Numbered from the stretch's first letter, positions 21,539-51,936 are shown. The stretch: 64,000 nt of DNA from an uncultured Spirochaetota bacterium (GCA_963783575.1 CAWAOD010000016.1:128001-192000), one strand, 5' to 3'. Notes: generated by a model not told the origin, from the letters alone. Translations and numbers: made by a program.

Positions 21539-21567
21539 ATTGTAATACGAACAAAACATCTTGTCAA
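21539..21567 (-). promoter_or_regulatory. sigma70-type promoter upstream of the TonB-dependent receptor
   Basis: Minus strand TTGACA-17 bp-TACAAT. Confidence 0.55.
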
Positions 21568-21592
21568 GACCATTTTTTGTTGAGTACAACTA

Positions 21593-21762: not shown

Positions 21763-22215
21763 AAAATAGTTACCGATGAAGTAATGGCATGATTATCTCA
21801 TTCATTTCATAGTATTCTTACCTTCTTTGAAATACTGTTCAGCAGTGAATGGTTGTAAAAATGAATGTGATTTTATTGTTTATACCGAATTATTCTTTTG
21901 GCCTGATGAACTTTTAGTAACCTTAATTTTCATATCACTGTCTTTAGGCATTATATAAAGCCTTTCTTTGCATTGAACTTATCCAAATTTTTTCTATTGG
22001 GGCATGTTTGAGTTTTCAGCAAAATATTTTAAATACCTCTGATCTTAACTCTAATGATTCAATCGAGAATTTCTAATATTCAGAAATAAAGAAAAAAATG
22101 AATGAAAAAGTCTCTTAATGAAGTAACACTTCAATAAAGTAATTGCTGTTTACATAATATTATATAATCAAAGGGATCAAAACCACTTATTTCTTTAGTC
22201 TAAAGACAGTGATCA

Positions 22216-23061: not shown

Positions 23062-26000
23062 TTATTCTCTACCTTCTTCCCAGTCATCATCATTCCTTTT
23101 ACCGGTCACATCCTCATAAATCCTGAGTTCATCCAGGTAGAAATATTCCTTTGGGTTGAACGAGTCAGTTTCACTGAATCCAAAGTATAGTTTTCCATTT
23201 TTATCCGAATAAACGGACTGATTTGTCCTGGTAAAAAAGGTTTGCTTTAAAATATCATCAATGTAAAATTGAATATAGGGTGTATTGCCGGAAGAAGATA
23301 AATCGTAATTCACCCTGATCCTGTGCCAGTTTTGATGGTGATCATCATCATGATCTTTCCCATCTTTATCATCTGCTCCGTCATCATTGTTTGTCAAATA
23401 ATAATTTGTCTGGCCCAGACCAATTGAAATACCGTACCTGGGATCCAGGTAAATGCTGAAGAGGGAAGTGGTATCACTCCTTATCTCAAACAGGGTCATT
23501 CTGGCCGACGGTTTCATGCTGTTATCCGGGAGATTATCCTGCATCATAAACTCAATCGAGGATTTGACCGGATTTATCAATTCATTGGTAGCCATACCGT
23601 AGATAATACCGGGTGAATAATCCTTATGCGCCGTAATCCCAAGGTAATGGTCGCTGAATATATAATAGGGCTCATTGGTAAGGTTCGGTTCCCACTTCCA
23701 GTCCTTTCCATAAGGAACATATGAACAATCGTAATATTCAAAGCCGGAATAGAGCAGGAGGGTTTGTTCATAATCCTTAACAATATTGAATGCAACCTGG
23801 TTGGTCGAATGGTTCCCGGCTTCGTCTTCAGCATAAACCAATAACTGGTAATTTCCTGAATTGGTAATAATCCAGTTGGTATAAAGGATCCATTTTTCAT
23901 CGCTTTTTTTCAGGTATTCTTCAAATACAGGTTTTACCGTAAAATCATCTTTTACCGAAACCACCGGAGAAACGGATAAATAATTGTGTTTATCGATGAC
24001 ATTAATGATATTGATCTTCGGAGGTTTCTTGTCGATAACAAATTCCCTGTAAACCGAAGCGATGTTGGTGTAAATGTCCTCGGCATAAATGTTAAGAATG
24101 TGATTCCCTTCCGTATTTATTATAGCGGTTGCTTGTCCATTCATCAAACCATACAGCTTCCCATCTATGGAGACTGTCGTATTGGACAGCGATAGATTCG
24201 GGTCATCGATCTGGACAGTTAAGTATATATCATTGCTATAATACTTCTTTTCGGTTAATCCGCTTACCGAGATTGAAGGAGGTGTGGTATCATGGAGAAG
24301 GAATTCCTTAACAACATCCGTCTCATTTCCGGCTTTGTCCACAGCTCTGACAGAGAAGATATAACTGCCGGCCATTGTTATTTTCACCGAATTCGCCGTT
24401 AAAGGCATACCGTTTAAAAACGCCTCTGTTTCCGAGATATTTTCATCCAAAACGGCATAGCTGAATTCAACCGGCTTAAAGAATTCCTCAGAATCCAGGC
24501 CTGTGACCGTAATCACCGGTTTTGTCTTATCAATAACAAATGACAGGTTTACCCGGTTTGTATGATTGACAACATCCCAGGCGGCCGCCTCAATCCGGTG
24601 GATACCTTCGTTGGTTACCATGCAGAGGCCGTTTCCATTGGTTTTTTGATCTATGACGATCAAACTCCCTGACAGATTAGCGTCCGCTGCGAACATATTT
24701 ACTGAGACATCCGTATTATAGTACTTATTATTAATCGCGCCGTCGATTTGTATCGCAGGCGCAGTTTTGTCTATTATAAATTCCTTTTCTGTTTCGCTGC
24801 AATTGCTAAATATATCTCCGGCATAGACTGCCAGGTGGTGGGTTCCTTCCTGAGTAACGGCCGTGACGAATGTTGTCCCGTTAAGAATATTGGTTTTTCC
24901 GTCTATCACAGCGCAGCACGCGCTTCCCGACAGATTTGCATCGGATACCCTGATTGAAAGGTTAACATCATTTCCGTAATATTTTCCGTTATCAAGCCCC
25001 GAAATGGTAATCTCCGGAGGTATGGAATCGATCACGATGAAATTTTTCGTTAAGACGGCTTCATTGCCCGCCTTATCCTGGGCATCGATCGTAAGGGTGT
25101 AATTTCCGGCTTTCGTTACGGAATAAATGTTTGTCGATAAAACCTGGTTATTTAATGCGGCGGTTATTGCTGAGAGATTATCATCGGCCGCCGTATAACC
25201 TAATTGCACGGTATTGGAATAAACGGTTGCTTCCAAACCTGTGACCGTAATCACCGGTTTTGTCTTATCAATAACAAATGACAGGTTTACCCGGTTTGTA
25301 TGATTGACAACATCCCAGGCGGCCGCCTCAATCCGGTGGATACCTTCGTTGGTTACCATGCAGAGGCCGTTTCCATTGGTTTTTTGATCTATGACGATCA
25401 AACTCCCTGACAGATTAGCGTCCGCTGCGAACATATTTACTGAGACATCCGTATTATAGTACTTATTATTCACCGCACCGTCGATTTGTATTGCAGGCGC
25501 AGTTTTGTCTATTATAAATTCCTTTTCTGTTTCGCTGCAATTACTAAATATATCTCCGGCATAGACCGCCAGGTGGTGGGTTCCTTCCTGAGTAACGGCC
25601 GTGACGAATGTTGTCCCGTTAAGAATATTGGTCTTTCCGTCTATCACAGCGCAGCACGTGCTTCCCGACAGATTTGCATCGGATACCCTGATTGACAGGT
25701 TAACATCATTTCCGTAATATTTCCCGTTATCAAGCCCCGAAATGGTAATCTCCGGAGGTATGGAATCGATCACGATGAAATTTTTCGTTAAGACGGCTTC
25801 ATTGCCCGCCTTATCCTGGGCATCGATCGTAAGGGTGTAATTTCCGGCTTTCGTTATGGAATAAATGTTTGTCGATAAAACCTGGTTATTTAATGCGGCG
25901 GTTATTGCTGAGAGATTATCATCGGCTGCCGTATAACCTAATTGCACGGCATTGGAATAAACGGTTGCATCCAAACCTGTGACCGTAATAACCGGTTTTG

Positions 26001-29000
26001 TCTTATCGATAACAAAAGAGAGGCTTGCCGTATTAGTATGATTTACTTTATCCCAGGCAATTGCCAGAATTTGCTGTTTTCCGGACCCCGATACGGTGAA
26101 CTGACCTGTCGGGACGGTTATTCCATTTAAATAAACGGAACTTCCAGCCGGGTTGTCTTCAAGGATATTAACGGATATTGTTTTATCCGAATTATAAAAA
26201 TTTCCTTCCTCGGCACCAGTAATCCCTATAACAGGAGCTGTCCGGTCTATTACGAATATCCTGTCGATGACGGTTGTATTACTGTAAGAGTCCTCTGCAT
26301 GAATGAGCAAATGATGAGAACCTTCCAGGTTAATATTGGTGGAAAACGGAATGCTGGTAAGATAATAGATTTTACCGTCTATTGAAGCATAAGTGGCGCT
26401 TTCCAGGAGATTTTCATCCCAGACTGAAATGCTTAAACTTATGTCATTGCTGTAATATTGATCCGGTTTTAAACCTTTTAATGTTACGACAGGGGCGATA
26501 TTGTCGCTCCCGCCGGTATTTACGGTGAATGTTTTAAAGTATTCACTTGAATTTCCGGCTTTATCGACCGCTTTAACCGACAGATTGTAACTGCCGCTTG
26601 CACTGATTTTGTAATGGTTCGTACCTAGAGCCTGGCCGTTAAGCTGTGCATCGACTTTATCCAGATTAACATCGGAAACCAGGTATCCGAATTCAACCGA
26701 GCTTGTGTAATTTGTTTCAGATAATCCTGAAACGTCTATCTCAGGCTTAGTCTTATCAATAGTAAATGTAAATAATACGCTGTTAGTATTCATGAAAGTA
26801 TCACTTGCGGTCACTTCAAGGGTATGAACACCTTCGGCCGAAACCGTAAATGAATTTGTTTCAATAATAGCGCTGTCCATAACAACCCGGCTTGAATCAA
26901 GGTGCGCATCCGTTGATTTCACAGTAATTACAGCATTATTGCTGTAATAATGAGCATCTTCAATTCCCGTAACGCTTATGACTGGAGCGTTCGTATCTAT
27001 TACGATAGCAAGAGGCGGAATTTTCCCTCCGTCGTTAGTAGTATCGCACACTTCGATGAAGAGGTAATAGGGTTTACTGAAATTCCCGCTGAACCGTTCA
27101 TTCGTCCCATATTCTTCACGGTATAGATACCCATTATTGGCATTGTCCTCCGATATTGCGGCAATAAAGTAAAATCCCTTCTTTAATTCAACCGGTTTCT
27201 CAAAGCCGCTGTAAACAAAATCTTTATCAAGTATATCCTTGTCCCACCTGAACCCGGTGATATCCTGCACATCATAGTCGAAATCATGCCATCTCCATCT
27301 CCAGGCGTCATTGACAACATCTCTGTAATGGGACTCATCCACTTTTGCAATATCATACCAAACCTTTCTGATTCCGGAAGATACACCATTCACGGCAGGG
27401 TCTTCTCCGCTCATAAGGAGGATCGAGTTGGTCAAAGTTTTAAATACGTTATTCGTCAATTTACCATTGCCGATGGTGAAATTGATCACGGGTTTTGTGC
27501 TGTCCGCCAGACCTATTCCGGAATCTTGCCTGAAATTTCCCTTGCCGTCTTTATACTCGGCTTTAACCAGATATATTCCGTCATTTAATCTTTCAGTACT
27601 GCCATAATGTGGGGTTTCACCGATATATTCCCACAGTTCACTCCGTTTGTTGTAATTCCTGTCATTATACAGGCCTAACCAGTCTTCAGGTACGAAGGAA
27701 AGCTTGGTGCTGTCAAGCGGCAGGTAATCCAGCTTTTTCTTTGCCCTTTCGTCCGAATGAAATTTGACATCGAAAGGTATAGCTTGACTGTAGAAATTTG
27801 TTGCCGGCCTGACTATTTCGATCAGGTCATCCAGGGTATTGGTGATGGTCATCCAGTTACCTGGCATTCCGTAATCGCTCCATGCCCTTACTTTAGCGGT
27901 TATATTAAGTGCCTGGCCGGCTGTCAATTTGATATTGCTCAATATTGTATGGTTGGCGGAAATATTTTGAACCTGCCCGGAAACCGAGAATTCATAATTC
28001 CCGGCAGGCACATTATTCAAGTCCTTCCATTCATAAATTATATTCGTATGATTCAATACCAGGCTTGTAAAGTTCGTAATACCCGGTTCACTGTTATTGA
28101 TTTTAACTGTATAATAATGAATATCCTCATTGTTCCCGATTTTATCTATTGCCCGGAAACTGAAATCGTGGAGTCCATCATCAATGAATTTAAGCGGTAC
28201 GGTATAAGTTATCCATTCATCATTGTCGATGCGGTACTCTATCTTGTCAACTCCCGAAACGTAACCGTCGTATTCACCCATATCATCCTTTGCATCGAGC
28301 ACAATCGTTACATTGGAATTCGCCAGTATCATACTTCCGTTAGTGGTAAAATCACCACGGAGTGCTATCCAGCTTACGGGCGGCGTTGTGTCGGGAAGCG
28401 GGATGTTTACATAGTCTGTTACAGCGCTTTCGTTACTAACCAGATCCATAGCATTGAAAACAATTTCATACAATCCTTTGCTGTAAATCCCCAGGTCACT
28501 GAAAGAAATCCCGTTACCGTTTGTGTAATATGTATAAAAATTTGTTTCGATAAAAATATTATTGCTGATGCCCCTTATGGACAGTATAATTCTCTCAATG
28601 CCGCTGTCTTCCTTAATATCCGCGTTAAACCGGTTCGCCGGTGAAATATATTTTTCACCCATAATGTTCATGGGTTCTATCAAATTCGATGTGTAAACGA
28701 CCTTTAAAACAGGAGCTATACCGTCAATAAATATGTCCATTGAATTTGTAGCCCAGTTGTCCACATCATCCACACCGGCATCGTAAAGGGTATAAAATCC
28801 GTTTGTGTAACCGTAAAAAGGTATGACATCGCCTTTGGTATAATCTTTCAGAACAGGCTCCGTACCTCTCGGTACTATGCTATAGTATAAGCCTTTCAAA
28901 TCCGGATCATCGGAATAAATTGAAACGCCCGCGTTTGTACTTACAAAGAAGCTGTATTTTGTTAAGTTTGTTTGTGTATGAGCCGGTATATTTTCGATAT

Positions 29001-32000
29001 TGGTTGTGACGGTGAAATTGAGATTTGAAATACTGCCGGGGTCGAGGCCTGATAAATCAGGAAGATTGGTGAAGTAAGTTCCGCCCAAATATATGTTATA
29101 GTTTGTACTGGAGTAGGCCGCAATGTTTGTGACGGTAAAATCGAACTTGAGTGACTGGCTGCCGCTGAAAGTCTGGTTCACAAGGGGAGGAGTATTATCC
29201 ACCAGAAGATTGGTCGTAAATATGGCGGTATTCGATGCGCTGTCAACAAGCTTAAACTCTAATATTTTCATTCCATCATAATCAGCCGTATAAACATAAT
29301 TCTGATTCAGCTGGTTCGTGTCTGTCCGGTTCGTTTCGGAACTGCACATCCAGTTTCCATCGTAAATGGAATAAATTGAGCGGTCCAACCGGTAATTATC
29401 GCTGTAGTTTAAAGATATAACGCTATGGTTGACCGAGGGGCTGTTCTGCGAAATCTTAACGGCAGAGAGCGTAACGTCATTGATTTGCGGAGGCATACTG
29501 TCTATTGTGATTGTAAAATCATAATTCGTGATGTTTCCGGTAAAATCACAAACGGATAATCTTGCGTTGTATGTTCCATCGCTGAAATATGAACCGTCTT
29601 TTTGCTTACCGTCCCAGGAAAGTGTTATGTCTCCTTGCGTATTAGTCGAACAAAGCATTTCCTGATAACCGTTACCGGGTCCTTCAATCGACAAATGGCT
29701 CACCACCAGGTTGGTGATATCATTTGCGTCATTTACCGCGTTATATTCCATAAAAATCCGGCTGATGCCAGGGGAGAGCGTCCTGGAGATGCTTTTTACA
29801 GCCAGGGCAGGCGGATATATATCGTTCCTGACTTTGACAACCCCGGAATATGAAATGGATCCATTACTTACACTGTCGATCGCCGTTACTTTCAACCGGT
29901 AATCGCCCTGGAGCAGGGGTACGCCGCCCACTTTGCCGTCCCAGTAATAATCCCAGGCATTATCAGAAATACCATTGGAAGCGATGACTGCGGTTTGATA
30001 AACACCGGCATAATTGGTCCCTTCTATCTCCACTTTTTGTACCCTGATTTTTTCATCATTGGTTATTTTAATCCAGAGAAGAGAATTTTCCATCGTAGAA
30101 GAATAGATTTCCGGCTGCGCTTCAACATAAATAAAGGGCGGAGTCCTGTCTACAATAACATTAGTTGTAAAAATAGATGTATTGCCAGCAGCATCCAAAG
30201 ACTGAATCCGTATGGTATTAGTGCCTTCAGGAAGTAAATCGCTGTTTATTATTATATTTGTAGTCCCGGATTTATCAATAAATCCTCCCGCCTTCTCTGA
30301 ATCTGAAGATAGCGTATAATTTATGCTATGAGTGTCGGAAACCGTGAATTCGATTTGCATCAACCCCTTCACCTTCAAATCGCCGGGGAAGGCTGTTCCA
30401 AAGGTATTGTTACCATCTATCCGGTTTAGCTGAACTGCAGGCGGTGTGTTATCAATGTCGAGCGGAAGAGATGTCCGATTGATGTTACCGGCCTTATCGG
30501 AGGCCTCAAGTATAAATTCGAATGTCCCGTTCAGCATTGCTTTTGCCGTGTCAAACGAGCAAACGTATCTATCGATAAAACTGCTATCCATCAGATTACT
30601 TGTAATAGTTATCTCTGTGCCGTTTGTATAATAAATCCTGTATTTCAACGGATTCTGGTCATTAATAGTAACATAAAAATCAATATTTCCGGCTAATACC
30701 GCATCATTTCTGTCCGGCCTGAAAGATAAAGCCGGCACTATGTTGTCAATAATTACCTTTCTGTAATCGGAGGAAATATTCCCTGCCCAGTCTTCGGCAT
30801 TCAGGGTTATGGTATGTTCGCCATCCGGAACCTTACCGGAGGTTGTATCGATATCTGCGGTTACAGCGTTGGAATTATTATTTAAAATCCCGGATTGTAC
30901 AATCTCTCCATCCAGCAGTATATTCCAGGATTTTGGGTAATTATCAAGAATATTTCCTTTGAGTGTAAATGTTCCGCCGCATACCCCGTTGTTATCGGGG
31001 CTTGTAATCACCGTCAAAGGCGGTTCCCTATCGACAATAATGGAAATATTGGTCGTATTGGTATTGCCCGCTATGTCTGCAGCCTGAATGATTAATGTGT
31101 ATTGCCCGTTATCGTTCAAACCGGTAAAATCATTCTCAAAATCGATGCTAAACCGGTTTGTGGCAAGATTTTCGCCGGTGTATTTTTGATAACGGCCGCT
31201 GCCGTTTATTCCAATCTCGTAGTAAGCCAGGCTGTCGTTATCGCTTAAGTCCGCCGAAACCCGGAGCTTGTTCTGGATACCGCCGGTTATTATGTTCCTG
31301 ATTTCCGGCGGGTTGTTGTCCACCATAAACGGCTGGTCGATTATGTTTGTGTTTCCCGCTTTGTCGAATGCAATGAGCCGCATTGTATAAAGGCCGTTAA
31401 GATTAGCGCAGTTCCATGCTACCGTACCTGAATAATCCGGGATCAACCCCGAAATGTTTTGTATCAGGTTAAATTTGCCGTCTTGATCTATCCAGCCGGC
31501 CTGAGCCCCGTCAATATTAGCGTCCTGGATCACCACAGGTATTCTGGAAACCGCCGTTAAAGACGAAAGCCTTCCATTACCGGCAATGATATCCGCGAAA
31601 GGCTTCGCGTTATCCACAAGAAATTTTAGTGTTTTTTCATTAGTATTTCCGGCTATGTCATATGCGGTGAGCCTCAGCTCAAAGCCGTCCGCGGGGGCCA
31701 GAGGCGCAGACGTGTTGACGCCGTATGTATCGTAAGCCCCGATCTGCCCGGATTCAATGGGATTGTTCCCCTTTGCTATCCTTTCTTCAATGCCAGTCTG
31801 ATCATTTTTCAGGTAGAGTTCATAACCGGTGAGATGCTCGTCTTGAATTCCTCCGGAAATGTCCAGCATTCCCCGCACAATCTGGTTCTGTCCCGGATTG
31901 GCGATGGTCAGGGACGGCAGAATGTTGTCTACAGTAAAACTGACAGCTCTCTTGACAGTAAAGGTCTTGCCCGCACAGTTCGCGGTAAATTCGAGCGTGT

Positions 32001-41000: not shown

Positions 41001-41988
41001 AATTCTGTTTATTGTCCCAGACCGGATCTTTCGCGATACCGGTTATGCCCACATTTCCCGATATGTTTGTAGAAATGACATTTCCGGAATCGTCATATCC
41101 TTTAGGCGATGTGATCAGTGGTTTGATTCCGCCTTTAACCAGTTCGGCATAACGGGTAGCCCTGTTACCATGAATATCATCAGCTTCGATGATGAAGTCA
41201 TAAGTCCCGCATGGAAGCTCAACGCCGTTCGTTTTTCCATCCCAATTGAAGCTGTTCTCGCTTCCGTCGGCCTGGTTCATGCAGTTGCTGAATACAGCTA
41301 CCGCTTCGTTCGCGTACTTATCCAGAATGGTGATCTTTACATCGACTTTCCCCCGGTTGAGAGGGTAATCGTCATCTTCGGACAATTTATAATAAAGATT
41401 GGCAGTCCCATTGCTGCTCTGCATAATGAAAGGCATTGTATAAGCCTGATATATCACGGGGGCTTTCCGGTCTACTATTAGTGATGTTTCGCGCACCGGT
41501 CCAACATTCCCGGCCAGGTCGGCGGCCGCCATCATTACACGGTACTCGCCGTCTTCTATTCTCTGGAACGGGTCGTAGAAAGACCAGAGATTGGTCTGGG
41601 GAATTCCGAACTTTTCCTTCTCGATTAATGAACCGCTGTAATACCTTCTCCCGTCGTTTTTGTTCTCCAAAGTCATCCGGAAATAGCCTTCGTTGTTTGT
41701 AATCGTGCTGCCGGAATCGTTTAAGGTGAAGGAAACATGGTATAAATCTCCTTTTTCAGCCGTTATGGTTCCATCCAATTCAGATTGTTTAACTTCAAGT
41801 GCGGGAGGAACCGTATCGACAATGAAGTTTTTACTGTAAACGGAGCTGTTGCCGGCCTGGTCTACGGATGTTATGGTCACAGTGTGTACACCCTCGCCGG
41901 GGTTATAATTATTTGAGATATAAACATCAGGGCCTATAGAACAAAGGGTTTTGGCACGGACAACGCTTCCGTCTATTTTCATTTCCAT
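23062..41988 (-). CDS. Giant surface protein, C-terminal 6308-aa segment (Ig-like, FlgD-Ig, ZU5-like and LamG domains)
   Basis: Dozens of D-x-A-G-N / D-x-T-x-P Ig-like repeats; many WDG(K/R)..G...DGxY FlgD-Ig motifs; (F/I)SPNGD motifs; LamG (YLFNGNANDTSGNGNHG..FKGAIDDVRIFNRALS); C-terminal LamG-like domain (LDELRIY). No signal peptide and it starts mid-domain, so it is probably frameshifted from the upstream ORF. Confidence 0.9.
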   Translation of the reverse strand: MEMKIDGSVVRAKTLCSIGPDVYISNNYNPGEGVHTVTITSVDQAGNSSVYSKNFIVDTVPPALEVKQSELDGTITAEKGDLYHVSFTLNDSGSTITNNEGYFRMTLENKNDGRRYYSGSLIEKEKFGIPQTNLWSFYDPFQRIEDGEYRVMMAAADLAGNVGPVRETSLIVDRKAPVIYQAYTMPFIMQSSNGTANLYYKLSEDDDYPLNRGKVDVKITILDKYANEAVAVFSNCMNQADGSENSFNWDGKTNGVELPCGTYDFIIEADDIHGNRATRYAELVKGGIKPLITSPKGYDDSGNVISTNISGNVGITGIAKDPVWDNKQNFMNYAVYIKPGNQTMPDGLDHSVLTGEGWSDGDGALWVPELNRKAGETANISFRSVEENSLLGYLETAKLTNGDYTLLLVAREEPMSVLLASTSAPSLQELKGAQWADLSFIKITNAIEIPTDDSVSTVILQEVGVDKMNFIADGKNSVKLDYKLTLQNVSSADVNFGVYDQNSNNVCNSKKYNLNGKPYIQPTPDVTEGFNVYQDEAGWHIVMTNPGSSDMRFGGRVRAEEGIGGLKDNAISTRDHGITYRTENEFSFSYTVASDDSVKEAATSQYNIVTNKGTVITNTHKGQREIIFNTDADEVWFELLVNDQADPNFIYYDNGKHPVLESIFGDDNPYSASVGSLSNNIGFRLENARPAPSFTWDGKDIYGSLVNDGNYRLVLTAEGRDGKGFDKKNIDNLEVYSRIDITNIGLSSTNFDPFSTGINCTTLSFRVTKSAFVDITVMDTNNRDVCEIVKNTSVNGNYYNQVNYNGVKDSIGSPEFLDKGNYNFRIVAWDADHPDIAATNFIPFTLNPEEISGGLSPLLNVEGQSTNNENVVAVNGDARFKWVLKNVTGAYLPPLKVTYRLNARGSQAVVGYPFVPFVTEAYRWFDSAYVKVEGKYDFTRREVKKSFWGSVSTANDRKDTGSAGIEKVMGPGEHIHFSADNKIDNGDNGDWFDHRIGSVGCWPSGMYGLDDITVNGKNVHKTASGEDFRVENTDVGEWGDVGGYKYSHLVGNFDFTFDPNRRGNTMMNNVLNRFSQWASENKYYYGNQEDQNNKILKDSDETETNNVGPIYDSYTHFDISGSVIEEDGARHYYNWRIQGKNGYISHYVSMANDFDANVSKGKALCYEYDENANFNGFVPRNHVNFRFEGDNLEANKAYNVYFTQIPNTHTYIAHTDIDDKNDIVIDFPATLNQVANWNQSHNFNTNGDGCYDKYFASLHNAFLDPNNSQINYGGYGASYITASDVIELDNSKGDYSFNKTGLFANFNLNTSGPEGNIRNINLNNLGIAVDKVEPLDPEYAANQDYNKANSLMFTSSVDAGGSINCTGRTFSGLWYMSSDERLSPTGHTLVSGTNVICGKEFDGKAIRLNFKDSYPKQDSTGNDGLFWVTNGIVINNPWLIVDKDSVKADNIEFYYLNGEKNEDLCVSNVTIESGTNFANGYFLAALKPGREGQKVVEIRGSVNSAYELLYYDGNNFQSITNVPVVKVISNATLAYWNVRGLSGRYTILLKAYNNQGVKYAKQVVDIGEYKKPNTGSGNFLTSTPYKRVELVIPASVPDNTLVNVTPMGLDELKESEIGTKLPDISPIGPILKMEPSPYQFGDNPADWPRITVKYTWEEANQFGMINSSPAIYTISENGIEALNTTVLYLSWDTSSVDSSIQTNTQRPEKFNIIQLTASASHFSYFFVLNGTNFNLPAPQIRRDLIRDLDILPADQTFLNDKNKESLYYTKQTNISIAGIAAKGSGIPTNAVCFVSTDQRINSQSQGRSIGKSGILGDSGQQLTNCTADNNNTITTNIYPAGWFIFTNIILNEGTNYVAVKYDSENSPVDRIIVLQDSAGAKIDYFNASKYISPNGDGNKDLFTADYGLSKDSDVRFELYDRKGNTLYSETLSADSVDGIDSQTQVSNTITWDCMDNNGKVFPDGGYDYRFSTVDRIGNVNEGLVQSFIIDTVPPELKTDSDSCLVNQTGETKLHFTATKPVMINIEVYAADGSFVNGMNISDYKKDDEFALPSYDSTFNPLPDGEYTLRIHYEDEAGNKGLTKNIRIIIDRTAPAITEPVANPQKFIAGKIRTSFSFFTSEDGFADILLANNNGILGLILSNYSVYAGMNRIEWDGTLNNRPVYRGQYQALLSVSDKNGNRSAVKAGNIEAIVDNNEPGVVFLTLSTNRIGYTANKVGIIQMQYAVTDDITSIPDSSVRIIDKYGSEVAVLKPYQLELTNEVYWYGMDSNGQYVPDGTYYAKVEASDEAGNLMQSSQVQKILVDNISPALYKFNLLNSYISPQNPGGIQKAVFKMKAVDSDSINADISIRMYGMIVRNIFQGILSNNTEQTFEWDGRMDNGDFATDGSYELQITLEDPSGNVFSRKDKIIVDSVNPVSILLAKYDDPFSPNGDQMRDELPVITTVTDDISPVLFVRYEIFKQDGETIVRTIETNCVGFAAITNTWDGKDDTGRLVPDGIYRIQETCFDLAGNKSQPVSMECTVDTTPPVLPAAAAGNTIFSPGESTGFFDDVTVTNQTVTTETAFVTHNIEGDVFPYGYTAKGSGIYYRVTPADLTLTAYGKQTNYLVTNEWVTFNVKGLTSEYLFNGNANDTSGNGNHGSAYNAALTSDRFGNLNSAYDFNGINSFVQTPLNMGGLTGLTYSAWVKPTGSVSGTKQYTIISQYDGGTEYDVMKLFYNDNNDKKFQGQVCGGFYQGGTLVINPNVSDFNQWYFVVLAYDGTAPDYQRLKLYVNNSLVATSNGQSILKYNTQYKLRIGAKQDEVNFLFKGAIDDVRIFNRALSDSEISYLKDLSSYSHVMYGLTSTNAALLGKLSDIINIPPGDINNGNITISYTVDNSNKVTVKFYQGSQLPDNNILNGSSTATVNSSNPPNQWYVFAQVVNENNYSYVVKNITNRVQISTNLSALKPTIFDEDHYPSLFNSLNLKPVNGYFTGFDLSCAQNTIVFTATNTNSLGYLTGFTISNTYREDFTTSDINVENHGVSFSFSGDGNKEDIFKEYAYPASFDGTLIQMTNWSIDLYTYGTGSQHFSASNLYVSNITTSVSNNENGRKNGWFDVCAKSLGDIILHTYRSDEPTAAGDEYVDAWDGRNVNTGRIMPDGTYFSKVYTRDEAYNKNVKVTPLEIDDINPDIVISYPLSNSIVSDMIDILGTISDKHLSAYSITIANGGTSYPAADGINSTVSNSLLAQFDTLGLSGDSELIINAVDSVSNTNQVRIPFKVENNEDLIFKISKVENMIVSSAGSLAISFYHVANCSVNVKLDGTDVYNYVYSSQGTDLYTYQPVNLTNGDHTLEFTANCAGKTFTVKRAVSFTVDNILPSLTIANPGQNQIVRGMLDISGGIQDEHLTGYELYLKNDQTGIEERIAKGNNPIESGQIGAYDTYGVNTSAPLAPADGFELRLTAYDIAGNTNEKTLKFLVDNAKPFADIIAGNGRLSSLTAVSRIPVVIQDANIDGAQAGWIDQDGKFNLIQNISGLIPDYSGTVAWNCANLNGLYTMRLIAFDKAGNTNIIDQPFMVDNNPPEIRNIITGGIQNKLRVSADLSDNDSLAYYEIGINGSGRYQKYTGENLATNRFSIDFENDFTGLNDNGQYTLIIQAADIAGNTNTTNISIIVDREPPLTVITSPDNNGVCGGTFTLKGNILDNYPKSWNILLDGEIVQSGILNNNSNAVTADIDTTSGKVPDGEHTITLNAEDWAGNISSDYRKVIIDNIVPALSFRPDRNDAVLAGNIDFYVTINDQNPLKYRIYYTNGTEITITSNLMDSSFIDRYVCSFDTAKAMLNGTFEFILEASDKAGNINRTSLPLDIDNTPPAVQLNRIDGNNTFGTAFPGDLKVKGLMQIEFTVSDTHSINYTLSSDSEKAGGFIDKSGTTNIIINSDLLPEGTNTIRIQSLDAAGNTSIFTTNVIVDRTPPFIYVEAQPEIYSSTMENSLLWIKITNDEKIRVQKVEIEGTNYAGVYQTAVIASNGISDNAWDYYWDGKVGGVPLLQGDYRLKVTAIDSVSNGSISYSGVVKVRNDIYPPALAVKSISRTLSPGISRIFMEYNAVNDANDITNLVVSHLSIEGPGNGYQEMLCSTNTQGDITLSWDGKQKDGSYFSDGTYNARLSVCDFTGNITNYDFTITIDSMPPQINDVTLSAVKISQNSPSVNHSVISLNYSDNYRLDRSIYSIYDGNWMCSSETNRTDTNQLNQNYVYTADYDGMKILEFKLVDSASNTAIFTTNLLVDNTPPLVNQTFSGSQSLKFDFTVTNIAAYSSTNYNIYLGGTYFTNLPDLSGLDPGSISNLNFTVTTNIENIPAHTQTNLTKYSFFVSTNAGVSIYSDDPDLKGLYYSIVPRGTEPVLKDYTKGDVIPFYGYTNGFYTLYDAGVDDVDNWATNSMDIFIDGIAPVLKVVYTSNLIEPMNIMGEKYISPANRFNADIKEDSGIERIILSIRGISNNIFIETNFYTYYTNGNGISFSDLGIYSKGLYEIVFNAMDLVSNESAVTDYVNIPLPDTTPPVSWIALRGDFTTNGSMILANSNVTIVLDAKDDMGEYDGYVSGVDKIEYRIDNDEWITYTVPLKFIDDGLHDFSFRAIDKIGNNEDIHYYTVKINNSEPGITNFTSLVLNHTNIIYEWKDLNNVPAGNYEFSVSGQVQNISANHTILSNIKLTAGQALNITAKVRAWSDYGMPGNWMTITNTLDDLIEIVRPATNFYSQAIPFDVKFHSDERAKKKLDYLPLDSTKLSFVPEDWLGLYNDRNYNKRSELWEYIGETPHYGSTERLNDGIYLVKAEYKDGKGNFRQDSGIGLADSTKPVINFTIGNGKLTNNVFKTLTNSILLMSGEDPAVNGVSSGIRKVWYDIAKVDESHYRDVVNDAWRWRWHDFDYDVQDITGFRWDKDILDKDFVYSGFEKPVELKKGFYFIAAISEDNANNGYLYREEYGTNERFSGNFSKPYYLFIEVCDTTNDGGKIPPLAIVIDTNAPVISVTGIEDAHYYSNNAVITVKSTDAHLDSSRVVMDSAIIETNSFTVSAEGVHTLEVTASDTFMNTNSVLFTFTIDKTKPEIDVSGLSETNYTSSVEFGYLVSDVNLDKVDAQLNGQALGTNHYKISASGSYNLSVKAVDKAGNSSEYFKTFTVNTGGSDNIAPVVTLKGLKPDQYYSNDISLSISVWDENLLESATYASIDGKIYYLTSIPFSTNINLEGSHHLLIHAEDSYSNTTVIDRIFVIDRTAPVIGITGAEEGNFYNSDKTISVNILEDNPAGSSVYLNGITVPTGQFTVSGSGKQQILAIAWDKVNHTNTASLSFVIDKTKPVITVTGLDATVYSNAVQLGYTAADDNLSAITAALNNQVLSTNIYSITKAGNYTLTIDAQDKAGNEAVLTKNFIVIDSIPPEITISGLDNGKYYGNDVNLSIRVSDANLSGSTCCAVIDGKTNILNGTTFVTAVTQEGTHHLAVYAGDIFSNCSETEKEFIIDKTAPAIQIDGAVNNKYYNTDVSVNMFAADANLSGSLIVIDQKTNGNGLCMVTNEGIHRIEAAAWDVVNHTNRVNLSFVIDKTKPVITVTGLEATVYSNTVQLGYTAADDNLSAITAALNNQVLSTNIYSVTKAGNYTLTIDAQDKAGNEAVLTKNFIVIDSIPPEITISGLDNGKYYGNDVNLSIRVSDANLSGSACCAVIDGKTNILNGTTFVTAVTQEGTHHLAVYAGDIFSNCSETEKEFIIDKTAPAIQIDGAINNKYYNTDVSVNMFAADANLSGSLIVIDQKTNGNGLCMVTNEGIHRIEAAAWDVVNHTNRVNLSFVIDKTKPVITVTGLDSEEFFKPVEFSYAVLDENISETEAFLNGMPLTANSVKITMAGSYIFSVRAVDKAGNETDVVKEFLLHDTTPPSISVSGLTEKKYYSNDIYLTVQIDDPNLSLSNTTVSIDGKLYGLMNGQATAIINTEGNHILNIYAEDIYTNIASVYREFVIDKKPPKINIINVIDKHNYLSVSPVVSVKDDFTVKPVFEEYLKKSDEKWILYTNWIITNSGNYQLLVYAEDEAGNHSTNQVAFNIVKDYEQTLLLYSGFEYYDCSYVPYGKDWKWEPNLTNEPYYIFSDHYLGITAHKDYSPGIIYGMATNELINPVKSSIEFMMQDNLPDNSMKPSARMTLFEIRSDTTSLFSIYLDPRYGISIGLGQTNYYLTNNDDGADDKDGKDHDDDHHQNWHRIRVNYDLSSSGNTPYIQFYIDDILKQTFFTRTNQSVYSDKNGKLYFGFSETDSFNPKEYFYLDELRIYEDVTGKRNDDDWEEGRE
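24500..26016. repeat. 738-bp (246-aa) near-identical tandem duplication within the giant gene
   Basis: CCTGTGACCGTAAT recurs at 24500, 25238 and 25976. The two 246-aa units differ at five residues (D/E, A/T, I/V, T/A, V/I). Confidence 0.95.
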
Positions 41989-44900
41989 ACTGCCGAAGCA
42001 TGGGTATAGGTGTGTCTTTCAGTTTGTAAGCGACCATCAATGTTTGATTATGGTTTACGATGCCGATATTTTCAATATCGGCGATCGGCGGGGTGGTATC
42101 GTTATAAAATCCGGTGACCGTGGTCGATTGATTGCCCATCATATCAATAGTCTCAATCATTACTGCATATTCCCCTTCCGGTATTATATTTTCCTTTTTC
42201 TGAAGAGGGAAGGAAACATTCCAGGATGTCGCATCGTTCTGGCTGATCGTGTAATCCGTCACCGGAGTCCAGTCATCATAGTAACCGCTGACCGTTTCCT
42301 GCATCCATGGGATAGAAAGCCGCTTGAGGTAGATCTTTAAATTATCCCGTTTCAATTCGGCTCCCATATCGGAATTGTAAACACCGACCGCAATTTCAGG
42401 ATTCTGTGTTCTATTGAGATTGACTACGTCAAATATCTTCGGATAAATAGGGTAAGCTTGCATCGGCATCATATCGAGAAAGATTTCAAAAGCATAACTC
42501 CCAATTTCCCCAGCGATTACTTCATTGCCCGACCTGTTTTTATATGCCAGGCAAGTGGTAAAGGCGATGACATTCCTTCCTTCCAGAAGATGCAAGCCCG
42601 ACAGTTTAAATTCACCCTTCGCGCTCAATGGGACTTCTTTATAATCGCTGTAATTGATTGAATACATAAGTTTTCCAAGCTGCGGAATGTTTGCCCGGAC
42701 AATCCCTTCTATTGAGTTGACGAACTCATTCAGCATGACATTTTCAACCGATGTAACCTGGCCGCTCCTTGAATTGAGGAGGGTTTGTATTCCCAATTTT
42801 CCTTCAGTAAACTTATACTGGCTAACCGGATTCCCATTTATCTTGAGGAGTAAAACCGGCGGGGCTTCCCCGCCCAATTTACTTAGGGTCAGGTTTTCAT
42901 TCGTTACGATTTTGTCGAAACTTCCCGTGATACCCCCGCCGCCACTCTGTCCGCCCTGCAGGCCGAATATTTTAGTCATGATCAGTTCGCCGCCTTCACT
43001 CTTCAGATCGGTGTTTTTAAGATAATCCGTCGCGAGTAAAGCGGCTGTTCCCATAATCGCGGCACCGGCAAAGCCGGGTGGGATTGGCACCGATACCGAT
43101 ATGTTTGGTACCGGAAGGATGCAATCCACTAATGTGGAAACCTTGTCCTGGATGATTTGTTTGGTCGCCGCGTTAAGATAGCTGACTCCCCTGTCGTATA
43201 GTCCCTGCACAAAAAGAATCGGGCGTTGTTTGATGTTTTCCAGCATTGAAACAAGACTGCTGCCTGAATAGTTCAGGTTGTTGTAAAGCTTTTCCATCCC
43301 CGAAACCTCGTCCAGAATTGAAGAAACATCCCCCTGCAGAAACGCCAGGTAGGAATCTATAAAATAGGAGAAAGCGTCGAGATGGCCACTGTTAGACAAT
43401 TCGGTCTCATTCGTTAGATCACTGAAAAACCCCCTGATTTCATTATTATCAAAAATGACTGAAATACAGGAAGAGGTATTCTTTATACCGTCCACGGTGC
43501 TGTCAACCTGATCGGCAATTTGTCCGGCCTGATCCATGTAACTTTGAAGTTCATTATAAAGGTTGTTAACGCCGTATTCATTTCCCAGCTGGTAAAAAGC
43601 GGTTTGAATTATTTCACTATAAGCATCTTGCACCATTTGTCCTGCCATACTTGAGAAATTAGGGAATATTTGCCGTATCCAATCCGGTGTATTTCCGCCG
43701 GATAGGGAATTCTCCACAGCACTTTTTATTTTACTACCGTTCAGCCATTCCCTGCCGTCGGATATAAGAGACCTGACGGTAGGACTAATTGATTTGATCT
43801 GACTGCCGATCTCAGAAATCTTATCCCCCATAACCTGAAACTGTCCACCGTAAACATCCGCAAAGGTACTATATCCTCCGGATAGTCCCGGCGTTGTCAG
43901 GATAAGATCCTTCAAACGCTTATATGCCTGGCTCCTCACTTGCTGAGGCGTACTTGAAGTGAACCGGCGGATAACCATCAAGGCATTCTTGACCTCATTC
44001 AGTTTGGACTCGATTACGGTAATGCCGCTTCCTGTTTTTTTAGTAACGATAGTCCCAATATCATCATCAGCAATTTCAAAGCAGCTGTCCGAAACCGTTT
44101 TAAGCTGATTTTCTATCTTCAGCCAGAGAGGAGTATAAACCATATTGTTCAACGCCTCTTCCGCGTATTCGGAAGCTATTTTTCCAAGCTCTTCATCCAG
44201 GTTGTTAAACACTTTACTGTCTGTTGAGAAGAGTTTGGTACCCGTATAAAGGCCGGCAAAGCCGCCGGCCCCTGCAAATACAACTACGCCGGCCTGGAAC
44301 AAAAACGGCATGTCGGGCCAGAATGCCGAGCTCGTACTTGAAACCTCTACCCCAATGTCTTCCGGGTTAAAGTTCCGGATGGAATTCATTAAAGAACTGT
44401 TGGCGTCCACGCTTAAGGCCGAGTCAGCCCTGCCCAGGAGGATAGAGATATAATTGAACGGATTTATAATATCGTCGTTTCGTACGATTTTTTTTACCGT
44501 ATCTTCTATATCCATTCCTGTAAGGGTTCTTATAATATCATTCGGTTTGATGTTGGTATCGATGCCTATCGGATTAAGATCGATATTGACGGATGAGAGA
44601 AGCCCCAATACCGGTGCGATCGTCAGGTATGCCGCGTAGGATTGCGCAGCCATACTGATAGAGTTGTAACCGTTTGCGGGCACTCCGATCTCGATAATCT
44701 TCGAAATCCTGGGAGCGGCCATCCGCTGCCCTGCGGGAAGGTCCTTTTCGTCCAGAAGCATTTTACGAACCCAGATACCGGCCTTACCCCATGTCGACAA
44801 AACAATCTTCCCTCCGCCAGCGGAATTATAGTAATCGATCACCGCCTTCCGGATCTTATCCACAGCTGCCTTTCCGCTATCACGCTCGTCTTCCGGTGTT

Positions 44901-47491
44901 ATGGAAATGCTTTTTGCGTTCACACCCTTTCCTACAAGTACATATTTCACCGGATCAATCTCAACCCCGCCTGCCGAAATACCCGGCGCAACAATCAGGC
45001 ACTTGTCTGAAACACCCAATACGTCGTAAAGAGCCTTCTTTGCGGTTTCCTCGACGATTTTATCGACATTAAAATCAATGCCGTCAACCCAGCTGTTGCC
45101 TGCGTCGTCTGCTGCCTCGACAGTAAAGACGCCTGAAAGTCCCTGAGCGAGTTTGCCTTTTCCCTCCAGGAACTCTTTAAGGTCCCATAGAATGGTGAAT
45201 TTACCGGTATTGGTATCAAAACTCACCGGTATCCCGGATATGGTTTCAACCGTTACATCGCCGAAATTTCCGGTCAAAATCCTGTCCGCATTATGTACGA
45301 CAAATTCCCATTTATTAAGCTCCTCGCCAGTGGACTTGTCCTTCGACGTTACGGAAACATGAATATTCCGGGAAAGATTATCGGAAAGGGTTAACACCAG
45401 CGCGTTTCCCAGCCCCTGCATAATGTCGCTGAAAAGATCGCCTAGACTGAATGTAAATGTGGGCGGGGTGTAGTCAATGGCAAAATCGGGGGATAGAAAA
45501 CAGCCGTCCTGGTTAAGATCGTCTTCCGGGGGATTTACATTATCCGCTAATAAAACCATATCGTTTTTAAACTTTGTTATTCCCCCCGAACTGGCAAGAT
45601 AGGAAAGCCTGTGGAAGGTTACACTATCCGCCATTAATAAAGCCAGTTTATATCTTCCGTTTGGAATTATGTTGTTATTCGCCTGAAGATTTATCGAACC
45701 GCTGTTCCAGCCATATTCTGCTGTATTATTCCTAATTTCTCCTTTAGTTAAAGGATTTCCCCATTTTATTCCATTGCCTGAGCTTACAATTTCTATTCCT
45801 CCGATATTACGTACATTGCCAAGAAAACTTTGAAACGCGTCTTTTCTCCCTTTATCATCTATACTGGATGCATAATCGCTTAAATAAGCATCTCTTTTTA
45901 AATAAAAATCATTAACTTTGTTATTGTCCGGGTTATCCGGTATTAAAAAAGCGAAGGTATTTCCTTTGTCCAATGTTTTGTCGTCATCCGCTTTAAGTTT
46001 GATTGTAATATTTTCCTTACCGATATCACTAAACAGCCTGGCTATGCCGTTGCAGGCGTTATTTATTTTCCTGAAATCCCATTCCCCAAGATTCCCTCTT
46101 TTATCGCTGACTGTATTAAAATAAGTCAAGACAGGCATCTCGTTGTCAAAACATAAGGGCAGGTACATTGGAGTTGAATGCTCGTAGTTAATGAATGCAA
46201 AGCTGCTTTGTGACGCCGAACCTGTATCGATTCCCACTTCAGTCTGAGGATCTGAGTCTACTTCGTTATTAGCCATGTCATGACCGCTCAGAAATATACC
46301 GGTTTTGTTTAAAAGAATATCTGCGCTCATCTCTATATTTTTCGCATCCATCCACATCATGTTTTCCGATTTAATGCTGTTATAAACATCAGCCGGCATG
46401 ATATTCCCAAGAATCAACCCGGTCTGGCTGATATCCGGGAAAGAACTTGGCGCCAGATTGACCAGGAAATTATCCGAGGGATTGACATTCCATCCGGTTA
46501 ATTTTGCCAGCCATTCTTCTGCCTCCGTCAGATTCAGGTTTAAATCCGATTTGCAGAATGTCAGGCTTCCATCCTTCATCCCGGCCGGGGACCGGCTTTT
46601 AAAACCGGCGTATAGCTGCAATGTAATATTACCGTCGCCATCCGCGAGAGACTTTATTTTCTTTCCGTCGGCCACGTTCACAAAAGACGAAATCCATTTT
46701 CCGCCGTTGTTTTTATAGAAATAATAATATGCAAGAATTTCTCCGCTTCCCGACGCAATGATCACCGCCCGGACCGATGCCGGGTAATAGCCCGTGTAGC
46801 GGTAGAAGATGAAAGTTGCATTATCAGAAAAATTCATTTCCTGGCGGAAACCATCCTGCTTACTTAGGTAAGTATGTGTGCCTGAAACCCAGCTTGTATT
46901 GGTCGCGGCAGCATAGAGACTAATGCTGGATAACCCGCTATTATTTCCGACCGGTTGCCAGCCGGTCTGGCTGTTAAACGAAAAAGGCCCATACTCAAAA
47001 GGATTTGAGTCACCTGATGAAAGAATAGTATCCTGTTTCTGCCCGTTTATTGATAGGTAGACATTATCCCATTTTTGATCCGCTGTCTTTTCCGCCTTCG
47101 TCAATATTCTGGAACCTGAACGAATCCGAAGCTGGAAATCAATGGAACTGCTCGCGCTGTCTATCAGATAATTATTTTGATCCAGCTGCTTCGCATTCGC
47201 CGGTGGTGTCAGGACAAATTGCGGATAGGGGGAATAATTATCAAACCCCTTTCTACTATCATAAACTGTACTGTCATGTTTTGGAAAATAAATTTCACTT
47301 TTATTACTAGCTAATCTAACCATTTCACCCTGTCTTTTGATAGCTGCAGGCGGTACTCTTGTATTGGCATCTAATAATTGCTGTATTTGATTTAATACAT
47401 TATTTTCTCCATAAAAAAATCCCGGAATTAAACCCATCTTGAGCTTCATAAATAATACCATATTTATGTTCTTTATCCTGCCAACCGCCAA
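41927..47491 (-). CDS. Giant surface protein, middle segment (Ig-like domains, degenerate alpha/beta-hydrolase, helical and hydrophobic region)
   Basis: Ig-like motifs (DYTPPTF, AADDAGNS, TIDMMGN, NDTTPP); lipase-like IVAPGIS / KIVLSTWGKAG / KIIEIGVPANG; hydrophobic QAGVVVFAGAGGFAGL and GFAGAAIMGTAALLA. Overlaps both neighbouring ORFs at frameshift-like junctions. Confidence 0.85.
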   Translation of the reverse strand: MAVGRIKNINMVLFMKLKMGLIPGFFYGENNVLNQIQQLLDANTRVPPAAIKRQGEMVRLASNKSEIYFPKHDSTVYDSRKGFDNYSPYPQFVLTPPANAKQLDQNNYLIDSASSSIDFQLRIRSGSRILTKAEKTADQKWDNVYLSINGQKQDTILSSGDSNPFEYGPFSFNSQTGWQPVGNNSGLSSISLYAAATNTSWVSGTHTYLSKQDGFRQEMNFSDNATFIFYRYTGYYPASVRAVIIASGSGEILAYYYFYKNNGGKWISSFVNVADGKKIKSLADGDGNITLQLYAGFKSRSPAGMKDGSLTFCKSDLNLNLTEAEEWLAKLTGWNVNPSDNFLVNLAPSSFPDISQTGLILGNIMPADVYNSIKSENMMWMDAKNIEMSADILLNKTGIFLSGHDMANNEVDSDPQTEVGIDTGSASQSSFAFINYEHSTPMYLPLCFDNEMPVLTYFNTVSDKRGNLGEWDFRKINNACNGIARLFSDIGKENITIKLKADDDKTLDKGNTFAFLIPDNPDNNKVNDFYLKRDAYLSDYASSIDDKGRKDAFQSFLGNVRNIGGIEIVSSGNGIKWGNPLTKGEIRNNTAEYGWNSGSINLQANNNIIPNGRYKLALLMADSVTFHRLSYLASSGGITKFKNDMVLLADNVNPPEDDLNQDGCFLSPDFAIDYTPPTFTFSLGDLFSDIMQGLGNALVLTLSDNLSRNIHVSVTSKDKSTGEELNKWEFVVHNADRILTGNFGDVTVETISGIPVSFDTNTGKFTILWDLKEFLEGKGKLAQGLSGVFTVEAADDAGNSWVDGIDFNVDKIVEETAKKALYDVLGVSDKCLIVAPGISAGGVEIDPVKYVLVGKGVNAKSISITPEDERDSGKAAVDKIRKAVIDYYNSAGGGKIVLSTWGKAGIWVRKMLLDEKDLPAGQRMAAPRISKIIEIGVPANGYNSISMAAQSYAAYLTIAPVLGLLSSVNIDLNPIGIDTNIKPNDIIRTLTGMDIEDTVKKIVRNDDIINPFNYISILLGRADSALSVDANSSLMNSIRNFNPEDIGVEVSSTSSAFWPDMPFLFQAGVVVFAGAGGFAGLYTGTKLFSTDSKVFNNLDEELGKIASEYAEEALNNMVYTPLWLKIENQLKTVSDSCFEIADDDIGTIVTKKTGSGITVIESKLNEVKNALMVIRRFTSSTPQQVRSQAYKRLKDLILTTPGLSGGYSTFADVYGGQFQVMGDKISEIGSQIKSISPTVRSLISDGREWLNGSKIKSAVENSLSGGNTPDWIRQIFPNFSSMAGQMVQDAYSEIIQTAFYQLGNEYGVNNLYNELQSYMDQAGQIADQVDSTVDGIKNTSSCISVIFDNNEIRGFFSDLTNETELSNSGHLDAFSYFIDSYLAFLQGDVSSILDEVSGMEKLYNNLNYSGSSLVSMLENIKQRPILFVQGLYDRGVSYLNAATKQIIQDKVSTLVDCILPVPNISVSVPIPPGFAGAAIMGTAALLATDYLKNTDLKSEGGELIMTKIFGLQGGQSGGGGITGSFDKIVTNENLTLSKLGGEAPPVLLLKINGNPVSQYKFTEGKLGIQTLLNSRSGQVTSVENVMLNEFVNSIEGIVRANIPQLGKLMYSINYSDYKEVPLSAKGEFKLSGLHLLEGRNVIAFTTCLAYKNRSGNEVIAGEIGSYAFEIFLDMMPMQAYPIYPKIFDVVNLNRTQNPEIAVGVYNSDMGAELKRDNLKIYLKRLSIPWMQETVSGYYDDWTPVTDYTISQNDATSWNVSFPLQKKENIIPEGEYAVMIETIDMMGNQSTTVTGFYNDTTPPIADIENIGIVNHNQTLMVAYKLKDTPIPMLRQYGNENRRKRCPCQNPLFYRP

Positions 47492-48137
47492 ATAGCATGT
47501 TATGTGTTGGATAACTGAAAAAATCTCCCCCTTTTAAATCATAAGTATCAACAGGAAGTGATATCTTTTTCAATTCATCTATACTATCCAATATATATTG
47601 TGAATTATCAGGATGTTCATATTTGTAAGCCCTAGTGACAAAACCAGTACATTCAATCCCTGCAATTTGATTAAAGTTCAAACTACCGAAAGTGTCCCAA
47701 TAATATTCCGTTCCCTGGCCGGTCTTACGATCAAATCCACCCGGTACAATTGAATCGTTTTTTATTCTATTTATATACTCATTGGGGCTGTTATAAACAC
47801 CAAAAGCATAAGGCATTATGTTAAACGAGCCTTCGTTTGCATCGCTTTCAAGGTTTTTATTTATTATGATATTGTTATTCGGATCTCTGAAACCCGTATC
47901 ATATTTATATAGGAAAGGTATTTTATCATTTCCCTCATATATTTTATAATAAATCGTCTGGAAATCTTCAGAATCATTATTCGTAATAAAAGTAACCGTA
48001 TCACTGCCAGTTTCCTGCCATGTTGGGATCTGTAAATATGATTCCGCAGTTTGAATTACACTCTGTCTTTCATTTACAACTGAATAACTATAATTAAGAA
48101 TAATAAATGAGGATATAACTAAAATTATTAATTTCAT
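47400..48137 (-). CDS. Giant surface protein, N-terminal segment: signal peptide plus NlpC/P60-like cysteine hydrolase
   Basis: MKLIILVISSFIILNYSYS signal; RQSVIQTAESY, MPYAFG, AGIECTGFVTRAY (Cys), LKGGDFFSYPTHNMLF (His), YEA; GGGGGA RBS. Confidence 0.8.
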   Translation of the reverse strand: MKLIILVISSFIILNYSYSVVNERQSVIQTAESYLQIPTWQETGSDTVTFITNNDSEDFQTIYYKIYEGNDKIPFLYKYDTGFRDPNNNIIINKNLESDANEGSFNIMPYAFGVYNSPNEYINRIKNDSIVPGGFDRKTGQGTEYYWDTFGSLNFNQIAGIECTGFVTRAYKYEHPDNSQYILDSIDELKKISLPVDTYDLKGGDFFSYPTHNMLFGGWQDKEHKYGIIYEAQDGFNSGIFLWRK

Positions 48138-50031: not shown

Positions 50032-50061
50032 ATTATAACCGATTTGGCACCAGATTGTCAA
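50032..50061 (-). promoter_or_regulatory. Consensus sigma70 promoter for the giant-protein locus
   Basis: Minus strand TTGACA-18 bp-TATAAT, about 385 bp upstream of the YARHG gene. Confidence 0.6.
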
Positions 50062-51771: not shown

Positions 51772-51777
51772 TATAAG

Positions 51778-51910: not shown

Positions 51911-51936
51911 GGAAATATTTTATTCAGGAGCGATTT

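Follow-up and report, generated by a model that had tools for sequence, protein, structure and literature searches.

Does a 25-kb series of overlapping reading frames in an uncultured Spirochaetota bacterium encode three proteins or one, and what might such a protein do? The DNA analysed here (GCA_963783575.1 CAWAOD010000016.1:128001-192000), referred to as the window, is 64,000 nucleotides (nt) long, and positions given without a contig name are counted along it. The gene in question spans 23062..48137 on the minus strand, as do all features described around it, and appears as three open reading frames (ORFs): ORF1 (47400-48137, 245 amino acids (aa)), ORF2 (41927-47491, 1854 aa, TTG start) and ORF3 (23062-41988, 6308 aa). 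An initial annotation, made from the window alone, had proposed that these are one protein of about 8,357 aa interrupted by a surplus base at each of two junctions. Unbroken homologues at both junctions bear this out, and the three frames are almost certainly a single gene. Read through, they describe an exported giant whose N-terminal wall hydrolase has been exchanged among relatives. The case is also a routine annotation trap: the protein database stores the gene as fragments (P0053, P0001), and this hides its architecture.

One gene in three reading frames

The frame changes by +1 at both junctions, with no in-frame stop or other lesion across the 25 kb, and the read-through with an X at each break measures 8,357 aa. 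Junction 1 lies at 47413-47419, a run of seven T residues (T7) on the coding strand that holds one base too many. T runs on that strand number 25 of T5, four of T6 and one of T7 within the span, the only run of seven or more being this one; the four A runs of 7-8 are all away from the junction. The T7 run sits in the approximately 40 nt between the last conserved residues of the ORF1 frame and the ORF1 stop. At junction 2, the top-scoring single extra base, as judged against the homologue in the genome G017, falls at 41992-41994, within an immunoglobulin (Ig)-like domain; missing-base solutions were tried against the same homologue and none left the frame open. Both sites agree with the initial annotation, which had pointed to the run (A7 as the window is written) and to the removal of one base near 41993 as restoring the frame of a split Ig domain. 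It had also assigned a signal peptide and a clear ribosome-binding site (RBS) to the first ORF only. A hydrophobic N-terminus is indeed present in ORF1 alone of the three (hydropathy 2.1 at aa 3-21), and its RBS is the strongest, at -9.3 kcal/mol; the best value among the initial 150 codons of ORF2 is -4.1, and the ATG of ORF3 has -1.1, though an internal GTG at 41880 has a Shine-Dalgarno (SD)-like site of -7.2 kcal/mol.

The source genome (G000; 4.9 Mb in 18 contigs, 89.85% complete) has relatives in G002, of the same family, and G017, of the same order. An open frame of 6,240 aa in G017 covers ORF2 residues 489-1849 and ORF3 residues 2-928, 1227-2617 and 2850-3749, and its alignment is free of gaps at junction 2. 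The G017 frame extends past the end of contig C55 and is continued on contig C16: the overlap is exactly 55 nt and in frame, and C16 supplies a further 1,906 aa that match read-through residues 5784-8348, for a colinear total of about 8,128 aa. No contig was found that would extend the G017 gene on its 5' side. A profile of the core gave 17 matches among 1.84 billion representatives, including the window's own protein, that of G002 and one false match. Two of the relatives, P0009 (7,612 aa) and P0010 (6,462 aa) (partial, labelled Omnitrophota), are single chains colinear across junction 2, which is therefore unbroken in all three homologues that reach it (G017, P0009 and P0010). None of the homologues seen was divided at these points into parts having starts of their own.

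For junction 1, the metagenome locus L034 carries a YARHG gene followed by a signal-peptide gene, the same pair as in G000, and aligns to read-through residues 107-1057 in one piece (32.5% identity, 6e-119). An outside profile of 33 sequences (31 homologues of the N-terminal domain, here called the tip, with P0004 and P0005) aligns in order with ORF1 (positions 1-217) and with the beginning of ORF2 (222-300); against it the read-through reaches 108.3 bits, and 200 shufflings of the ORF2 portion never exceeded 99.8. A strand resembling F/Y-P-Q-F follows the catalytic Cys by 100-128 aa in 17 of the 18 relatives that are long enough, and here it lies inside ORF2; the query that gathered the 31 tip homologues did not include this motif. 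Stand-alone NlpC relatives finish 94-96 aa past the Cys with a closing strand, ORF1 after 82 aa without one. The linker (aa 242-435) taken alone did not beat shuffles against P0005 and P0004 (126 and 186 of 1000); the argument for junction 1 is carried by the L034 alignment and the outside profile. Searches with ORF1 alone returned no longer homologue and no match among 60 relatives, ORF2 alone returned nothing in the genome contigs, and a three-row core alignment nothing in the metagenome contigs.

The core was found in four of 401 genomes of the phylum, all of the same order, one being a weak partial match. Two candidates were dropped from the family: P0015, which has cadherin repeats, and a weak match in G013 contig C1 that amounts to one Ig-like stretch. 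The latter (L039, G013 C1 84024-84206) is an exported protein with a single DGxFLSP-Ig-like stretch between unrelated domains. In many of the sequences P0057-P0084 the same NlpC/P60 tip leads into an Ig-like domain, most of these sequences being cut by short contigs; one is labelled Elusimicrobia, and a few are stand-alone forms of 225-236 aa. These may be further family members or other giants with the same tip.

Origin of the surplus bases

The T7 run at junction 1, the overlap of the frames and the SD-like site ahead of the GTG at 41880 would suit three separate proteins, or short and long forms arising from programmed +1 frameshifting or slippage of the transcript. We find either arrangement scarcely credible: each break cuts a domain in two, ORF2 and ORF3 lack signal peptides, ORF1 lacks the closing strand that stand-alone NlpC relatives have, homologues show no run at either junction position, and neither junction has a stable hairpin on its 3' side (z 0.08 and 1.66).

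The choice between consensus errors and real mutation draws on the background of the assembly, which was presumably made from long reads. When proteins from about 0.42 of the 2.5 Mb of G002 were aligned to G000, 11 frame switches were counted in 187,064 aligned bases, affecting nine of 186 genes (about one per 17 kb); the reverse direction, used as control, gave four in 185,848 bases. Five of the 11 are extra bases, five are missing bases and one is unresolved, and no single sequence motif accounting for these indels was found. The affected genes include what we take to be cysteinyl-tRNA synthetase and GreA. At this rate, about 1.5 breaks are expected in the gene (lambda 1.47 for 25 kb, P(>=2) 0.43; after subtraction of the control rate, lambda 0.94 and P(>=2) 0.24). 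The background thus favours errors over recent mutation, and we consider both extra bases very probably consensus errors of an indel-prone assembly. A gene that was once single and became a pseudogene recently in this strain, with both bases real, would be in keeping with the truncations and stubs common among relatives and with the position of junction 2 outside any long run. It is nevertheless rather improbable, given 25 kb without any other lesion or in-frame stop, conserved housekeeping genes of the same assembly that break at the rate predicting 1.5 here, and the even division of the ten resolved background breaks into extra and missing bases. Some observations do weigh against an error: the difference between 11 and four switches is not significant (p 0.12), and the family decays naturally. 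The L034 gene stops at aa 1043, an end shared by all six members of its cluster, and that of G002 ends at 1504; G011 keeps only the 3' part, a 5'-deleted remnant, and a G017 stub has a frame break of its own. The G011 remnant (L049/L050, G011 C2, about 750800-759300) is an in-frame fusion, with the beginning of a glycosyltransferase-like gene placed ahead of the 3' third of the family gene.

Split genes elsewhere in the window agree with this background. One extra base near 11390 divides a UvrD/PcrA helicase (10214-12461) between two ORFs, and a tandem ThyX gene with two Thy1 domains (54433-55928) is broken at a stretch of long A runs. On G000 contig C13, the first 500 nt of the two 16S copies (L001 1501-3032 and L002 1424-2956) disagree through many substitutions, and in the copy that lies near the contig end conserved places show single-base gaps, as from a low-quality consensus, a chimera or contamination.

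Domain architecture of the giant protein

From the N-terminus, the protein comprises a signal peptide, an NlpC/P60 tip, linker beta domains, a lipase fold that appears to be dead, a helical region and a stalk of Ig, FlgD and laminin G (LamG) domains. The signal peptide (48075..48137, end approximate) was placed from hydropathy and the RBS. The tip (47210..48074) is a predicted peptidoglycan peptidase domain of NlpC/P60 type, recognised by profile, Atlas neighbours and motifs; junction 1 cuts through this domain, a point that the initial annotation had not mentioned, any more than the exchange of the tip and the upstream gene among relatives. Its catalytic residues are Cys163 (47649-47651) and His212 (47502-47504), and its closing strand, the F/Y-P-Q-F motif at 47216-47227, is encoded in ORF2. 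With a 31-row tip profile, Escherichia coli Spr/MepS is matched at 4.7e-8, the Cys and His of the two lining up, and every one of the 16 PDB matches is of the NlpC/P60 kind; a three-row profile found no PDB relative. The Atlas neighbours of the tip are CHAP (0.92) and NlpC/P60 (0.91), and the AlphaFold model of ORF1 has a mean pLDDT (predicted local distance difference test) of 35. Relative to the endopeptidases Spr/MepS, RipA and CwlO, the Cys and His motifs align, whereas the tip described here has long N-terminal insertions, is fused to a giant and stays below the Pfam cut-off.

A conserved DGxFLSP motif (45488..45508), at which identity among relatives shifts, is the apparent crossover point. 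Beyond it lies a lipase-like alpha/beta-hydrolase domain with helical insertions (44327..45007, residues 1044-1270), identified by a profile match to 7v3k (4.6e-5, with the Ser aligned to Gly) and by the match of its model to Bacillus subtilis lipase A (Z 11.9, rmsd (root-mean-square deviation) 2.8 A over 123 residues). The fold is that of lipase A-type hydrolases; the differences are the large helical insertions and a Gly at the nucleophile position (codon 44786-44788). This replacement of Ser is found in all 12 rows that cover the site, two of the 14 rows not reaching it, and the core domain is therefore not a serine lipase. Next comes a long helical region (43020..44305) flanked by two hydrophobic segments rich in Gly and Ala, one from aa 1278 and the other from aa 1683; its hydrophobic peaks recur in G000, G017 and P0010 and are missing from P0009. 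The structure model of the core (mean 48) is confident in the alpha/beta part only, the helical region having low confidence, and the latter is a candidate membrane-contact module.

The remainder is a stalk of about 6,500 aa (23062..43019), made of Ig-like (Big_13/Big_3/OmpL47-type) and FlgD-Ig repeats recognised by Pfam and NCBIfam. Within it lies a Laminin_G_3 domain (33502-34134), and at its C-terminus stands a beta domain (from 23769), a jelly-roll by appearance only.

Exchange of the N-terminal tip

Homologues of the core carry different tips. An M23-like domain opens those of G002 (Pfam 0.0035) and G017, with HxxxD and HxH picked out by eye; L035 has an Amidase_3-like domain in its place (0.0016), and P0008 (0.0026) and P0009 have an Amidase_6-like one that goes unrecognised by the NlpC profile. 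In both amidase kinds the expected catalytic motif was seen by eye. Identity switches at the DGxFLSP motif: L035 and P0006 share 25% before it and 99% after it, and G000 shares 45% with L034 and 21% with L035 before it, compared with 33% and 65% after it. In a tree of the core (10 sequences, 290 columns), G000, with an NlpC tip, groups with the M23-bearing G002 and G017, apart from P0004, which has an NlpC tip (support 100), and tip type does not follow core phylogeny. At the level of sequence, these comparisons show a tip swapped among four hydrolase types on a common core.

The upstream lipoprotein and the cassette

Immediately upstream stands a lipoprotein gene (48139..49647) with a lipobox Cys, a YARHG domain (Pfam 9e-13) and a variable, low-GC (guanine plus cytosine) C-terminal half, for which no usable Atlas match was obtained. 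The ORF caller chose a TTG at 49677, and the RBS belongs to the ATG at 49647. The product is 41.5% identical to that of the gene upstream of the L034 homologue. A perfect sigma-70-type consensus (TTGACA, 18 nt, TATAAT) at 50032..50061, about 385 nt upstream of the lipoprotein start, is a candidate operon promoter, noticed by direct inspection of the sequence.

A variable N-terminal domain with a partner gene upstream was found in all five loci with context, and the type of partner changes with the tip. YARHG is paired with NlpC in G000 and L034, SH3 with M23 in G002 and in the G017 orphan L064 (an SH3-type gene followed by an 82-aa M23 stub), and TPR with Amidase_3 in L035; four of the five upstream genes have a lipobox, the L034 gene being cut at its 5' end. 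The lipoprotein C-terminal half and the tip form a block of low GC, flanked by host-like ends. GC falls from 0.46 to 0.27 along the G000 lipoprotein gene, and the block has 0.27 and 0.32 against 0.46 and 0.38-0.48 around it; the corresponding values in G002 are 0.32 and 0.43 against 0.62. Stand-alone or truncated cassettes occur at L034, on G002 C1 and as the G017 C6 stub, these orphans being 5' pieces, and related lipoprotein genes without an adjoining tip gene occur on G002 C5 and G013 C41. In P0025, the first residues of an amidase tip are joined to a YARHG body, like a recombination scar. The upstream lipoprotein is a candidate immunity protein.

On the 3' side, a small exported protein (22216..22866) is conserved, its gene also lying 3' of the family gene in G017 and G011. 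It had no family match, and we take it to be LolA-like. In G011, a secretin and a GspE-like gene stand just beyond it. About 1 kb of the window next to it (21189-22215) lacks any ORF of 100 aa, and the small gene that occupies this place in G017 and G011 has no counterpart here.

A possible wall-lytic toxin or self-remodelling adhesin

We somewhat favour the view that the system is a polymorphic antibacterial or predatory wall-lytic toxin of reversed polarity, with its immunity gene upstream. The giant would cross the inner membrane by Sec, and its tip would then face the producer's own wall. The producer's wall is the first that a Sec-exported hydrolase encounters, which calls for an antidote in place beforehand; a lipoprotein made first from the upstream gene, binding and blocking the tip in the producer's periplasm, would explain the immunity-first gene order. 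The giant would then leave through a secretin (type II-like) system, its stalk and LamG domains would grip a nearby cell, the dead lipase together with the helical part would engage the target envelope and the tip would cut the target peptidoglycan. New tips and lipoproteins may enter as one cassette, by recombination between the 5' end of the lipoprotein gene and the core.

The principal alternative is an intact giant adhesin whose hydrolase acts on the producer's own peptidoglycan, for passage of the protein or a secretion machine or for release, with the lipoprotein as activator, anchor or chaperone. The bulk of the protein is indeed an adhesin-like Ig/LamG stalk, YARHG, SH3 and TPR are binding domains, and activators of wall hydrolases are often lipoproteins. 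Such housekeeping, however, needs neither four unrelated hydrolase types nor low-GC cassettes, and has no use for an identity switch from 25% to 99% between near relatives, for orphan stubs and lone lipoprotein genes, or for so patchy a presence in the phylum; we consider it unlikely.

Several points nevertheless count against the toxin reading. YARHG and SH3 have been proposed as wall-binding domains, which would equally fit the partner of a self-remodelling enzyme, and YARHG is presented as a probable peptidoglycan-binding domain without mention of immunity in the part of the source drawn on here (PMC3355149). The M23, Amidase_3 and Amidase_6 matches all fall below Pfam cut-offs, and no hydrolase came up when the M23 and Amidase_3 tips were compared with the PDB as single sequences. 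The two YARHG lipoproteins (G000 and L034) are alike in the N-terminal half only. The pairs number only five and come from related organisms, excluding the full-length G017 gene, P0004, P0008, P0009 and P0010. No orphan cassette was found in G000, which has one locus only, and its secretin lies on another contig (C15).

Taking these elements together, we tentatively propose an undescribed family of Sec-exported contact weapons of about 8,000 aa in Brevinematales and Omnitrophota, with a cognate immunity lipoprotein upstream, at least four exchangeable hydrolase tips, a dead-lipase/helical module that would carry the tip across the target outer membrane and a giant Ig stalk.

Comparison with known systems

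The family inverts the usual polymorphic-toxin layout. As far as the part of Zhang et al. (2012, PMC3482391) used here goes, classical polymorphic toxins exchange their C-terminus, have a predominantly toxin-then-immunity order and count NlpC/P60 among their toxin types. The constant body, exchanged toxin domain, linked gene and stand-alone cassettes are common to both, whereas in the present family it is the N-terminal domain that varies, with the partner gene upstream and 5' pieces as orphans. With this opposite polarity, the family is not filed as a classical polymorphic toxin. The closest precedent is provided by the subclass II WHIX effectors of type VI secretion systems (T6SS), such as Awe1 with AwiU, which, in the part of the source considered (PMC12135965), likewise have an N-terminal wall hydrolase and an upstream partner or immunity gene. 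They are T6SS cargo of about 860 aa with a WHIX domain, unlike a protein of about 8,000 aa with its own signal peptide, a dead lipase core and an Ig stalk. The T6SS component VipA and PorV of the type IX secretion system were not found in G000 (89.85% complete).

Giants of Omnitrophota (10.1101/2023.11.21.568195, 10.64898/2026.06.07.730766), proposed to digest the prey wall, are similarly very large, exported and linked to type II secretion. The kinds reported there (Archaeovorins, a Dockerin type and tandem-repeat scaffolds) are multi-enzyme proteins with many transmembrane (TM) helices and often >10,000 aa, unlike the present one. Our giant has two hydropathy peaks only, against the many TM helices of Archaeovorin and Dockerin-type giants, and glycosyltransferase, SecA, C39 and dockerin domains are absent from its Pfam and NCBIfam matches. 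The main text of the former paper contains no NlpC, M23, FlgD, lipase or spirochaete, and that of the latter no NlpC, M23 or FlgD. Other large conflict proteins with NlpC/P60 appear in the portion of the Lipocone preprint drawn on here (10.1101/2025.01.14.632903). The family was not found described in the literature covered, although supplements of the bioRxiv giant-gene papers could list such proteins, and it is apparently undescribed.

Other features of the window and genome

A Rfam scan of the window gave no match. At 56372-60119 are type I restriction-modification genes, namely an M gene that begins in HSDR_N-like fashion and an S gene. Elsewhere in G000, the region C15 36855-75138 holds a second Ig-rich giant, which a frameshift divides into 60613-64011 and 50382-60722, together with a 3,767-aa exported protein and a secretin/GspE/GspF-like cluster. 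Four tandem signal-peptide genes, some with near-identical N-termini, occupy C5 255938-270264 upstream of another Ig-rich giant, which an in-frame stop interrupts at 266565; this may be a second system with a comparable polarity. Very long ORFs resembling polyketide synthases by eye lie at C4 306275-320447, C10 8600-32868, and C11 1325-36908 and 554113-564100; clusters of this kind are unusual for a spirochaete.

Implications

Beyond the repair of a fragmented annotation, the family offers small tip and lipoprotein pairs, a conserved pseudo-lipase and a possible function for YARHG. If the proposal is true, YARHG-, SH3- and TPR-type lipoproteins would gain a role as hydrolase inhibitors, and contact-dependent wall lysis, perhaps predation, would occur in free-living spirochaetes. 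The locus provides a handle on whether some of these organisms attack other bacteria.

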